Below, in pieces: positions 1-64,000 of a stretch of DNA of 64,000 nt. The notes under the pieces are model-generated. The model worked only from the letters and a program-made list of their open reading frames with translations, did no database searches and was not told where the DNA came from. Numbering within the stretch: position 1 is the stretch's first letter; every line of letters starts with the position of its first letter. Position numbers and translations under genes: made by a program. The DNA is from Escherichia coli (GTDB taxonomy: Bacteria; Pseudomonadota; Gammaproteobacteria; Enterobacterales; Enterobacteriaceae). The DNA is taken from assembly GCF_044324875.1 (NCBI RefSeq), contig NZ_CP172185.1; one strand, written 5' to 3'.

Positions 1-845
1 TTTATCGTTTTCGTGGTGCCAGCAATGCACTGTCGCATCCGGCACTGAACGGGGCGGACCGTCTCTGGCTGACGCAAAGTTTTCGTTTTGGTCCTGCCGT
101 GGCCGGGGTGGCCAGCCAGTTACTGAAGCGTGCCGGCGAGAGCCGTGAGGTGACCGGCAGGGGCGGGGATGATGAAGTGCTGACGGCAGGTGAAATGCGT
201 GCGCGCGTGAAGGCAGGGAAGATGACCGGTCACAGGGCGATACTGAGCCGGACGGTGGCCGGTGTGATTGGCACCGCACTGATGGCGGCAATGCGTGGCA
301 GGAAGGTTTACTGGGTGGGGGGCATTGAAGGCTACAGAACGGAGGCACTGGAAGATCTTTACTGGTTTCAGATGGATATGCCGGAGCGGATGCACAGTGA
401 CAGACTGCGGAAGGACTACCGGGGTTTTGACGAGTACCGTCATATTGCGAAGGTGACGAAGGATGTGGAAATGAATCAGTCCATTCGTCTGCTGGAGCTG
501 TGCTTTCCGCTGCCGAAGAAACTCGAACTTCTCAGAAAGCACACCGTCACGAATGAACAGGAGGCGGATATCACGGTCTCAACGGCACACCGCAGTAAGG
601 GACTGGAGTGGTCACTGGTGGTACTCGATGATGATTTTCAGGATATCACCGACCCGCTGATAAGCGAGCAGGAGCGGCGGGATGAAACCAATCTGCTCTA
701 TGTGGCGGTCACCCGGGCGCGCAGAACGCTGGTTCTCAATGAACTCATGCAGCAGCTGACGGAAGCTGCCGGCGATGGTGGTGCACCCGGAAACGCGCCG
801 GTGCAGGGGAAGGAAGACGATGGTGTGGAGGGAGAGGATGTTTAA
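1..845 (+). CDS. Superfamily-1 (UvrD/RecD-like) DNA helicase, C-terminal part; 5' end lies outside the window
   Basis: Frame 3 is open from position 3 to the stop at 843-845. Translation shows SF1 motifs: YRFRGA (motif III-like) at the window edge, TAHRSKGLEW (motif V), YVAVTRAR (motif VI). Confidence 0.6.
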   Translation, partial: YRFRGASNALSHPALNGADRLWLTQSFRFGPAVAGVASQLLKRAGESREVTGRGGDDEVLTAGEMRARVKAGKMTGHRAILSRTVAGVIGTALMAAMRGRKVYWVGGIEGYRTEALEDLYWFQMDMPERMHSDRLRKDYRGFDEYRHIAKVTKDVEMNQSIRLLELCFPLPKKLELLRKHTVTNEQEADITVSTAHRSKGLEWSLVVLDDDFQDITDPLISEQERRDETNLLYVAVTRARRTLVLNELMQQLTEAAGDGGAPGNAPVQGKEDDGVEGEDV

Positions 846-3713: not shown

Positions 3714-3789
3714 TTGGTGCCCGGAGGCGGAATCGAACCACCGACACGGGGATTTTCAATCCCCTGCTCTACCGACTGAGCTATCCGGG
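3714..3789 (-). tRNA. pheV: tRNA-Phe (GAA anticodon), 76 nt including CCA
   Basis: Reverse complement is GCCCGGATAGCTCAGTCGGTAGAGCAGGGGATTGAAAATCCCCGTGTCGGTGGTTCGATTCCGCCTCCGGGCACCA. Matches E. coli tRNA-Phe except for the T-stem (see findings). Confidence 0.9.
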
Positions 3790-3895
3790 CAACGGGGCGC
3801 ATTAAACCTGATTCGCCTCGTCTCGTCAATCAAATTTCTTCAATTTACTGCAGACTGCACAATCTATCATCACTTTGCCGCTAATGCACGCATTG

Positions 3896-48756: not shown

Positions 48757-48857
48757 GCCTGATGCGCTACGCTTATCAGGCCTACACGTATCCTGCAATA
48801 TATTGAATTCGCAGGTTTTTGTAGGCCGGATAAGGCGTTCACGCCGCATCCGGCATG
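48757..48857. repeat. REP/BIME cluster
   Basis: GCCTGATGCGCTACGCTTATCAGGCCTACA and GTAGGCCGGATAAGGCGTTCACGCCGCATCCGGCA units. Confidence 0.6.
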
Positions 48858-61599: not shown

Positions 61600-62832
61600 A
61601 TGGCAAAGGTATCGCTGGAGAAAGACAAGATTAAGTTTCTGCTGGTTGAAGGCGTGCACCAAAAGGCGCTTGAAAGCCTTCGTGCAGCGGGTTACACCAA
61701 CATCGAATTTCACAAAGGCGCGCTGGATGATGAACAATTAAAAGAATCCATCCGCGATGCCCACTTCATCGGCCTGCGATCCCGTACCCATCTGACTGAA
61801 GACGTGATCAACGCCGCAGAAAAACTGGTCGCTATTGGCTGTTTCTGTATCGGAACAAACCAGGTTGATCTGGATGCGGCGGCAAAACGCGGGATCCCGG
61901 TATTTAACGCACCGTTCTCAAATACGCGCTCTGTTGCGGAGCTGGTGATTGGCGAACTGCTGCTGCTATTGCGCGGCGTGCCGGAAGCCAATGCTAAAGC
62001 GCACCGTGGCGTGTGGAACAAACTGGCGGCGGGTTCTTTTGAAGCGCGCGGCAAAAAGCTGGGTATCATCGGCTACGGTCATATTGGTACGCAATTGGGC
62101 ATTCTGGCTGAATCGCTGGGAATGTATGTTTACTTTTATGATATTGAAAACAAACTGCCGCTGGGCAACGCCACTCAGGTACAGCATCTTTCTGACCTGC
62201 TGAATATGAGCGATGTGGTGAGTCTGCATGTACCAGAGAATCCGTCCACCAAAAATATGATGGGCGCGAAAGAGATTTCACTAATGAAGCCCGGCTCGCT
62301 GCTGATTAATGCTTCGCGCGGTACTGTGGTGGATATTCCGGCGCTGTGTGACGCGCTGGCGAGCAAACATCTGGCGGGGGCGGCAATCGACGTATTCCCG
62401 ACGGAACCGGCGACCAACAGCGATCCATTTACCTCTCCGCTGTGTGAATTCGACAACGTCCTTCTGACGCCACACATCGGCGGTTCGACTCAGGAAGCGC
62501 AGGAGAATATCGGCCTGGAAGTTGCAGGTAAATTGATCAAGTATTCTGACAATGGCTCAACGCTCTCTGCAGTGAACTTCCCGGAAGTCTCGCTGCCACT
62601 GCACGGTGGGCGTCGTCTGATGCACATCCACGAAAACCGTCCGGGCGTGCTAACTGCGCTGAACAAAATCTTCGCCGAGCAGGGCGTCAACATCGCTGCC
62701 CAGTATCTGCAAACCTCTGCGCAAATGGGTTACGTAGTTATTGATATTGAAGCTGATGAAGACGTTGCCGAAAAGGCGCTGCAGGCAATGAAAGCTATTC
62801 CGGGTACCATTCGCGCCCGTCTGCTGTACTAA
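61600..62832 (+). CDS. serA: D-3-phosphoglycerate dehydrogenase
   Basis: Translation from MAKVSLEKDKIKFLLVEG matches SerA (410 aa). Confidence 0.97.
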   Translation: MAKVSLEKDKIKFLLVEGVHQKALESLRAAGYTNIEFHKGALDDEQLKESIRDAHFIGLRSRTHLTEDVINAAEKLVAIGCFCIGTNQVDLDAAAKRGIPVFNAPFSNTRSVAELVIGELLLLLRGVPEANAKAHRGVWNKLAAGSFEARGKKLGIIGYGHIGTQLGILAESLGMYVYFYDIENKLPLGNATQVQHLSDLLNMSDVVSLHVPENPSTKNMMGAKEISLMKPGSLLINASRGTVVDIPALCDALASKHLAGAAIDVFPTEPATNSDPFTSPLCEFDNVLLTPHIGGSTQEAQENIGLEVAGKLIKYSDNGSTLSAVNFPEVSLPLHGGRRLMHIHENRPGVLTALNKIFAEQGVNIAAQYLQTSAQMGYVVIDIEADEDVAEKALQAMKAIPGTIRARLLY

Positions 62833-62851: not shown

Positions 62852-62885
62852 AACGGGCAGGTCACTGACTTGCCCGTTTTTTTAT
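62852..62885 (+). terminator. Intrinsic terminator after serA
   Basis: AACGGGCAGGTCA/TGACTTGCCCGTT stem followed by TTTTTTT. Confidence 0.6.
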
Positions 62886-62989
62886 CGCTTCTCCACACCG
62901 TTGCCGCGTTGTGCATTCGGCTTTGCGAGTCTGCTCCAGAAAATAAATCAAAGTCAGATCAATGCGTTGTGTTTATTTAATGGGGATTT

Positions 62990-63140
62990 ACGATGGCAGG
63001 GCAGCATGGTGCTGTAACGGTAAAGCCCTCACCGAAGCGAGGGCTTGAAGGAGAAGGGTTATGATGCGACTTGTCATCATACTGATTGTACTGTTACTCA
63101 TAAGTTTCCCAGCTTATTAACAGTCAGTCTCAGGGGAGGA
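62990..63140 (-). ncRNA. sibC: Antisense antitoxin sRNA SibC (approximate boundaries)
   Basis: Inferred from the ibsC position and the known antisense arrangement; ends not determinable by eye. Confidence 0.35.
63061..63120 (+). CDS. ibsC: Type I toxin small hydrophobic peptide IbsC (19 aa)
   Basis: MMRLVIILIVLLLISFPAY with RBS GGAG upstream, in the serA–ygfA spacer where the sibC/ibsC locus lies in E. coli. Confidence 0.6.
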   Translation: MMRLVIILIVLLLISFPAY

Positions 63141-63220
63141 GTCATCCTCCCTTACCCTTACTCACTAAATTAGGTTAAAGAATCAACGATGTCAATCAGG
63201 GCGATGCAGGTGTGTCGCCC

Positions 63221-63769
63221 TTACCACTCCCAGACTTTCGACGGTGTAACCACCGCAGGAAGTGGGATATCCCACTCTTCAACGGGGAGTTTTTCCACCA
63301 ACTGACAATCATGCGCATAACCCACCGGTTGCATTTGATAGCGCTGCCAGTTTTGTAAGGTCCGATCATAAAAACCACCGCCCATTCCCAGGCGCTGACC
63401 GTACTCATCAAAGGCGACCAGCGGTGTGATCAACACGTCTAATCGGGAAAGGGGTAGCACGTCACGCACATCCAGTTTTGGCTCATGGATCTTCAACCTG
63501 TTCATCACCAGTTCGCTTTGCGGATGGTAATTCAGGAACAGCAAATTACCGGCACTAAAGGGATGCAAAACTGGAAGATATACGCGCTTACCGGCGCGCC
63601 AGAGTTGTTCTATGAGTGGCTGGGTGTCGAGTTCGCCATCAAAAGAGAGGAATACAGCGACCGTATGTGCCATCACCACTGGGGGATAAGTCATCATCCG
63701 GGTAGCAGCTTGTTGACCCATTTCCTGCTGTTGTTCCGGCGTTAACGCACGACGACGTTGCCGAATCAT
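63221..63769 (-). CDS. ygfA: 5-formyltetrahydrofolate cyclo-ligase
   Basis: Translation from MIRQRRRALTPEQQQEMGQQ matches YgfA (182 aa); the longer ORF upstream overlaps ssrS. Confidence 0.9.
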   Translation of the reverse strand: MIRQRRRALTPEQQQEMGQQAATRMMTYPPVVMAHTVAVFLSFDGELDTQPLIEQLWRAGKRVYLPVLHPFSAGNLLFLNYHPQSELVMNRLKIHEPKLDVRDVLPLSRLDVLITPLVAFDEYGQRLGMGGGFYDRTLQNWQRYQMQPVGYAHDCQLVEKLPVEEWDIPLPAVVTPSKVWEW

Positions 63770-63841
63770 TTTGCGGATTTCTTGTCGGGATAATGTCAGT
63801 GGGAGTTCTGGTAGTTGCGTCATGGCTGGTGCCAGATAAGA

Positions 63842-64000
63842 AGGGAATCTCCGAGATGCCGCCGCAGGCTGTAACCCTTGAACCCTTGGTTCAAGGTGAA
63901 TGTGTCGTCGCAGTTTTAAGGCTTCTCGGACGGACCGAGCATGCTCACCAACCGCGGAGCGCCACATTCTTGTGGTATGAAATATCGGCTCAGGGGACTG
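63842..64000 (-). ncRNA. ssrS: 6S RNA, 3' 159 nt (5' end beyond the window)
   Basis: Reverse complement matches the 6S RNA sequence ...CAGUCCCCUGAGCCGAUAUUUCAUACCACAAGAAUGUGGCGCUCCGCGGUUGGUGAGCAUGCUCGG...GGAGAUUCCCU; directly upstream of ygfA as in E. coli. Confidence 0.8.

Follow-up and report, generated by a model that had tools for sequence, protein, structure and literature searches.

An intact, apparently ordinary ibsC/sibC toxin–antitoxin module with the common proline-17 toxin allele in Escherichia coli

Introduction

[quoted passage not shown] As known from the literature, which includes Han et al. 2010 (PMC2943612), K-12 IbsC is toxic upon overexpression and this toxicity is relieved by the cognate antisense RNA, SibC. 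The RNA acts through two recognition domains, TRD1 and TRD2. The target of TRD2 is located in the ibsC translation initiation region, and in TRD1 the exchange of a single triplet, G49CU51 for UGC (the SibD triplet, complementary to ibsD GCA), redirects TRD1 to ibsD. Variable TRD regions have already been proposed to discriminate between paralogs (Han et al. 2010, PMC2943612). The same study placed the 5' end of the ibsC mRNA 18 nt past the SibC 3' end and described pairing of the mRNA residues G50, G51 and G53 with SibC C110, C109 and C107, respectively.

Here, we consider a 64,000-nt stretch of an E. coli chromosome (contig NZ_CP172185.1, assembly GCF_044324875.1), referred to as the window, in which a sequence-only reading had proposed an ibsC/sibC locus with a notable proline substitution near the end of the toxin. 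The analysis indicates that the window very likely holds an intact, ordinary ibsC/sibC module at its usual place between serA and fau, in the commonest natural allele, and that proline at residue 17 (Pro17) is not a mutation of note. Both the toxin–antitoxin system and the Pro17 allele are already known.

Results

The locus and its neighborhood

The ibsC/sibC module is found between serA, for which the ORF (61600..62832, plus strand) ends at 62832, and the minus-strand gene fau (ygfA), followed by the 6S RNA gene ssrS (Rfam match at 63844..64000, minus strand, cut by the window end). This position between serA and fau, upstream of ssrS, as read from the window ORFs and the 6S RNA match, is that of ibsC/sibC as opposed to the other Ibs/Sib paralogs. 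The gene order rpiA–serA–ibsC–fau–ssrS–zapA surrounds the same 211 bases in annotated E. coli chromosomes (GN25, C600 and MG1655 records). A 19-codon ORF, a match to the Rfam model RF00113 and a serA–fau synteny as in K-12 thus bear out the identification of the locus as ibsC/sibC. The extent originally given for it, 62990..63145, takes in the whole ORF and the greater part of the ibsC mRNA, but stops short of the sibC 5' end (63159) and the sibC promoter (63167..63195, minus strand). Features of the locus are listed in Table 1.

Table 1. Features of the ibsC/sibC locus and its upstream boundary (window coordinates)
Feature	Position	Strand	Basis
serA intrinsic terminator hairpin, then T-run; upstream boundary of the intergenic region	62852..62878	+	consensus scan
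Putative weak ibsC promoter; -35-like GTTGTG/TTGTGT, -10-like TACGAT at 62989..62994	62966..62994	+	inferred from K-12-mapped ibsC start (Han et al. 2010)
ibsC mRNA, 159 nt	63001..63159	+	K-12 coordinates transferred over gap-free alignment
ibsC Shine-Dalgarno AAGGAG, target of SibC TRD2	63048..63053	+	read directly; Han et al. 2010
ibsC ORF, 19 codons and stop, MMRLVIILIVLLLISFPAY	63061..63120	+	translation; identical to RefSeq IbsC WP_071525914.1
Codon 17, CCA (Pro); K-12 AGC (Ser); complement of SibC +51..+49	63109..63111	+	alignment; mapping checked against MG1655 annotation
SibC antitoxin RNA, 141 nt; +1 = 63159, +141 = 63019	63019..63159	-	RF00113 match and MG1655 annotation
Predicted SibC terminator hairpin P7 (+114..+137), 10-bp, GC-rich, then UUUAC	63023..63046	-	MFE fold; 3' end from MG1655 annotation
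SibC TRD2 (+99..+115), single-stranded J1/7, complementary to the ibsC ribosome-binding site, spans AAGGAG and start codon	63045..63061	-	Han et al. 2010; identical to K-12
SibC TRD1 (+46..+68), P5 hairpin loop	63092..63114	-	domain definition from Han et al. 2010; loop unpaired probabilities
Probable sibC promoter; -35 TTGACA (63195..63190), 17-nt spacer, -10 TAATTT (63172..63167); start 8 nt downstream of -10, at 63159	63167..63195	-	read directly

Several other features of the window and of related genomes were observed along the way. The mechanical fau ORF (63221..63967, minus strand, 248 codons) runs through ssrS, and the fau start is annotated inconsistently: 603 nt in RefSeq records (63221..63823 equivalent) versus only 549 nt in MG1655. 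Elsewhere, the window holds a tRNA gene (3718..3790, minus strand) and an Rfam match to the ES036 (CssrF) sRNA at 48778..48820 (minus strand), which at 42.5 bits is just over the gathering score of 37.6. One of the ~7,295 matches to the ibsC/sibC region in the E. coli genome collection is found on a plasmid rather than a chromosome.

The toxin ORF and its mRNA

The hydrophobic peptide MMRLVIILIVLLLISFPAY follows the Ibs family pattern MM-(basic)-x-VIIL…SF-x-(A/T)-Y and, at 19 residues, lies within the 18–19 codons of the family. Its ORF aligns without gaps to the K-12 ibsA, ibsC, ibsD and ibsE ORFs and to 41 enterobacterial ORFs. The 18-nt overhang and the base pairs described by Han et al. 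place the start of the ibsC mRNA at 63001, and the window bases 63050, 63051 and 63053 are all G, in agreement with residues G50, G51 and G53. The stretch assigned to the putative ibsC promoter, 62966..62994, is identical to that of K-12. This promoter is a weak match to consensus and was not called by the generic consensus promoter/terminator scan.

The antisense RNA

On the opposite strand, the Rfam SIB_RNA model (RF00113) matches at 63045..63195 (minus strand) with all model positions, 1–147, and a score of 136.5 bits, where the gathering score is 56 (E = 5e-29), i.e., far above chance. A covariance-model check for sibC thus recovers a full-length SibC antisense to the ORF (RF00113, 136.5 bits), and the cis-encoded RNA of ~140 nt covers the whole ORF and its ribosome-binding site, as expected for an Ibs/Sib pair. 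The Rfam model and the annotated RNA are out of register: the model begins with ~36 positions of sibC promoter (from the -35 element TTGACA), which is thereby covered by the 5' part of the match, and it ends before the SibC terminator hairpin, so that Rfam coordinates are unfit as transcript ends. The transcript was mapped from the MG1655 annotation, where sibC is 141 nt long and SibC +40 faces the final base of the ibsC stop; with the gap-free K-12 alignment, SibC position n is found at window position 63160−n.

Probable -35 and -10 hexamers and a GC-rich terminal hairpin of sibC are readable and identical to those of K-12, with one differing base in the promoter spacer (63176). The generic scan called neither signal; it missed the promoter because the -10 element matches only three of six consensus positions. 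The silence of the scan, which found only the serA terminator, was considered as proof that ibsC/sibC signals are absent and was rejected as such, given that the hexamers and terminator hairpin are those of the characterized K-12 locus. TRD2 is identical to that of K-12, as is TRD1 save for the loop triplet at +49..51, which is UGG in the window, GCU in K-12 SibC and UGC in SibD. The predicted fold comprises P1, P2, P5, P6 and P7 as in K-12, and both alleles yield the same predicted structure and energy (−55.3 kcal/mol, MFE).

If the locus operates as the literature describes for K-12, the plus strand would yield an mRNA of ~159 nt for the 19-residue hydrophobic IbsC, and the minus strand the 141-nt, fully complementary SibC. 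Contact between the two would be made via two single-stranded elements, i.e., the TRD1 hairpin loop with the loop at codon 17 and TRD2 with the ribosome-binding site. Pairing would then spread, translation would be blocked and the ibsC mRNA degraded, where the function of the TRDs and the mode of repression are taken from published work.

That the locus could instead be a decaying, non-functional remnant is highly improbable. Some strains do carry an ibsC pseudogene (strain 33E, with CGA changed to TGA at codon 3), and the ibsC promoter is weak and missed by the consensus scan. However, the window ORF is intact, the Shine-Dalgarno sequence, TRD2, SibC terminator hairpin and sibC hexamers are those of K-12, and the RF00113 match is full-length and well over threshold.

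The codon-17 difference from K-12

K-12 IbsC does end in ISFSAY, as stated in the sequence-only reading: the K-12 peptide is MMRLVIILIVLLLISFSAY. Codon 17 is CCA in the window and AGC in K-12, such that all three bases differ, while the remaining 57 bases of the ORF are identical in the alignment. Over the 211 aligned bases, without gaps, there are 7 differences, of which 3 make up codon 17 and 4 are spread over the other 208 bases: in the SibC P2 loop (63142-63143), the sibC promoter spacer (63176) and the ibsC 5' UTR (63010).

Such a replacement of a whole codon points to selection, to a polymorphism of long standing or to a multi-nucleotide event. In the small sample of loci that were read, there were no intermediates between CCA and AGC. 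The difference may also be written as a deletion of CC with an insertion of GC. An inversion of the hairpin loop (quasi-palindrome template switching) was considered for the K-12 and window loops and rejected, as the reverse complement of TTTCCCAG is CTGGGAAA, not TTTCAGCG.

Frequency of the Pro17 allele

Allele frequencies were determined in 5,426 complete E. coli genomes by counting exact 30-mers that run from codon 14 through the stop codon and include the next 9 bases. The window type, ISFPAY with the UGG TRD1 triplet, was found in 2,789 genomes (51%), the K-12 type, ISFSAY, in 2,165 (40%), and the O157 type, ISLPAY, in 346 (6%). These three add up to 5,300 genomes, i.e., about one single or distal copy per genome, with Pro17 in ~58%. 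A further ending, ISFGAY, belongs to an extra tandem copy (1,843 genomes, 34%). Pro17 is thus the most frequent codon-17 state in E. coli.

The exact 60-nt ORF of the window is found unchanged in 1,199 of the 5,426 genomes, and its peptide is identical to the RefSeq protein WP_071525914.1, named "type I toxin-antitoxin system toxin IbsC". The view of Pro17 as a notable substitution is therefore not borne out. Reference ibsC alleles with the same sequence, which the sequence-only reading itself had named as the outcome that would speak against it, do exist, e.g., in ATCC 25922. What holds of that interpretation is the identity of the locus and the Ser/Pro difference from K-12; what does not is the framing of the difference as a notable proline substitution. 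The apparent substitution is an artifact of using K-12 as the reference.

Ancestral state and tandem copies

Outgroup loci come from a single scan in which species-representative genomes were searched for an Ibs ORF pattern, and were placed by similarity to serA and fau of the window. Escherichia sp. E1V33 (serA 94% and fau 92% identical) has a single copy with CCA (SLPAY). A second genome, SCPM-O-B-8794 (NZ_JAATUR010000026.1), carries a tandem pair with GGA and CCA, in which the CCA copy encodes the exact window peptide. It is labelled E. coli, yet its serA is only ~90% identical to that of the window; from the identity of the serA 3' end (89.6%), it probably belongs to a divergent Escherichia lineage rather than to E. 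coli proper. In Citrobacter sp. MGH106 the same locus has GCA. Because CCA is found at serA–fau in divergent Escherichia, Pro is probably the ancestral state there and the K-12 Ser derived. Judged from these sequences, with two Escherichia outgroup genomes, CCA/Pro is thus probably ancestral in Escherichia at this locus and AGC/Ser derived in the K-12 lineage.

About a third of complete E. coli genomes carry a tandem ibs/sib duplication at serA–fau (1,843 by exact 30-mer; 1,871 with two places), which the window is without. In two tandem loci (L003, 883..1334; L004, 490..942) the serA-proximal copy ends in …SFGAY (GGA) and the distal copy in …SFPAY (with V5A) or …SLPAY; the ISFGAY copy is serA-proximal in all three tandem loci that were read. 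In RefSeq, the name ibsC goes to the proximal copy; the distal one, which is equivalent by position, is just an "Ibs family toxin". The GGA and CCA pair already present in SCPM-O-B-8794 suggests that the duplication is old.

In strain 33E (L008, 883..942), a Pro17-type ibsC with a CGA to TGA change at codon 3 is annotated as a pseudogene with an internal stop. This stop indicates that the toxin can be lost naturally while the sibC sequence stays.

Residue 17 and toxicity

Residue 17 is variable throughout the family. Among the K-12 paralogs it is Q (CAG) in IbsA, P (CCC) in IbsB, S (AGC) in IbsC, A (GCA) in IbsD, which ends in …VSFAAY according to the MG1655 record, and P (CCG) in IbsE. In 41 distinct 60-nt Enterobacteriaceae ibs ORFs the residue is A in 14, P in 10, Q in 7, H in 6, S in 2, and T and G in one each. 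Codon 17 has the highest amino-acid entropy of these ORFs, 2.34 bits, followed by codon 4 with 2.22 bits. The codons on either side of it, which form the hairpin stems, hardly vary, but this is in part a product of the search pattern, which imposed codons 1–2, 6–7, 15–16 and 18–19 on the 41 ORFs. Codons 8–14, on which the pattern placed no constraint, are less variable than codon 17 as well.

The possibility raised originally was that Pro17 alters membrane insertion or helix geometry and hence the toxicity of IbsC, which would make the window gene a functionally distinct toxin allele. Proline is a helix breaker, and the whole codon is replaced, with a change in all three bases. According to a review of Mok et al. 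2010, the C-terminal part contributes to IbsC toxicity in deletion analyses and region 6–19 (C-terminal) is needed for toxicity in truncation analyses; with these residues needed, a quantitative effect of S17P is possible. Against a distinct toxin allele stands, first, the finding that Pro17 is the majority state in E. coli. Second, proline is found in the K-12 paralogs IbsB and IbsE, of which IbsE (…SFPTY) is annotated as a "toxic peptide" in MG1655. Third, across enterobacteria proline is the second commonest residue at this position, which takes A, P, Q, H, S, T and G. Furthermore, an alanine scan of Salmonella IbsA found only residues 3 and 11, i.e., His3 and Leu11, to be essential (bioRxiv 10.1101/2025.05.26.656083). 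The majority state, the IbsE annotation and the Salmonella IbsA scan together point, indirectly, to the absence of any large effect of Pro17 on toxicity. An altered toxicity is therefore clearly unlikely, and we infer that P17 IbsC would be as toxic as S17 IbsC.

Codon 17 as the TRD1 loop triplet

Positions +49..+51 of SibC are the complement of 63111..63109, i.e., exactly codon 17. In MFE and partition-function folds of both alleles, this triplet belongs to the loop at the tip of the SibC P5 hairpin (+48..+55) and to that of the complementary ibsC mRNA hairpin, where the ATAAG/CTTAT flanks form the stems around it. As SibC is transcribed from the same DNA as ibsC, any change of the triplet automatically preserves the complementarity between toxin and antitoxin. 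Between E. coli strains, this TRD1 triplet is also the main polymorphism at the locus, which modestly extends the idea of Han et al.

This observation offers a reading, compatible with that of an ordinary module, in which it is mainly the RNA that shapes codon 17: as a kissing-loop "address" in TRD1, kept different among the Sib/ibs copies of a genome, the triplet would restrict each SibC to its own ibs mRNA, and the amino acid would simply follow. The triplet is exactly G49CU51, the swap of which retargets SibC to ibsD (Han et al. 2010), and it falls within the apical loop of both the SibC and the ibsC mRNA hairpin. No two of the five K-12 copies share a triplet, and the same holds for the tandem GGA/CCA copies and for the copies of every multi-copy genome seen. 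Three of three triplet bases differ from K-12 as compared to 4 of 208 elsewhere. On the other hand, old paralogs may owe their different triplets to inheritance and not to selection, the chance of finding no collision within a genome is ~0.05 (a rough figure from pooled triplet frequencies in genomes that are not independent), and loop bases that encode an unconstrained residue could simply drift. In addition, the longest contiguous match between SibC TRD1 and ibsD increases only from 12 to 14 nt upon the change of allele. With these points on either side, we consider a role of the RNA in shaping codon 17 possible, at somewhat less than an even chance.

The window triplet, UGG, is one base from that of SibD, UGC. 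When contiguous TRD1 complementarity was computed for all Sib/ibs pairs, the increase for SibC–ibsD from 12 to 14 nt was too small for a claim of cross-talk, which was rejected. A more far-reaching proposal, that the S, P and G alleles of codon 17 are strain-level TRD1 addresses, maintained because selection acts on cross-talk between Sib/ibs pairs and not on the peptide, is doubtful. If it were true, the wiring of the Sib–ibs repression network would differ from one E. coli lineage to the next, with the tandem GGA and CCA copies kept orthogonal, and the multi-base replacement without intermediates would reflect selection or a loop-specific multi-nucleotide mutation process.

Discussion

From the above, it becomes apparent that the main consequence of the analysis is the correction of a K-12-centered view: the textbook Ser of IbsC is a minority and probably derived allele, and Pro is the usual one. 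Otherwise, the allele of the window is of little consequence. Any construct or designed peptide that starts from K-12 IbsC stands for only ~40% of strains, and variation of the peptide at residue 17 is to be interpreted together with the antisense RNA.

Among the closest known systems is the RefSeq IbsC WP_071525914.1 in GN25, where the peptide and ORF are identical to those of the window, as are all 211 of the 211 bases compared. The reference strain ATCC 25922 has the same peptide and ORF, with a few differing flanking bases. The K-12 MG1655 ibsC/sibC pair (b4665/b4446; Fozo et al. 2008; Han et al. 2010) shares with the window the serA–fau locus, a 141-nt SibC, TRD2, the Shine-Dalgarno sequence, the terminator hairpin and the -35/-10 hexamers, as well as 57 of 60 ORF bases and 18 of 19 residues. 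It differs in having Ser17/AGC with the TRD1 triplet GCU, whereas the window has Pro17/CCA with UGG.

K-12 IbsB and IbsE, as well as the distal tandem copies of O157 and B1-type strains, have, like the window, a proline third from last (…SFPAY, …SFPTY, …SLPAY) in an antisense arrangement. In contrast to the window gene, however, IbsB and IbsE are found at other loci (yegL–mdtA and yqiK–hldE), the distal copies come with an extra tandem copy at their locus, and the TRD1 and TRD2 sequences differ. Salmonella IbsA is likewise a 19-residue Ibs toxin with a basic residue 3 and Leu11, and the window peptide retains Arg3 and Leu11. It is, however, a different paralog, and it is for IbsA that the Fo a and b subunits of the ATP synthase are reported as the target (bioRxiv 10.1101/2025.05.26.656083).
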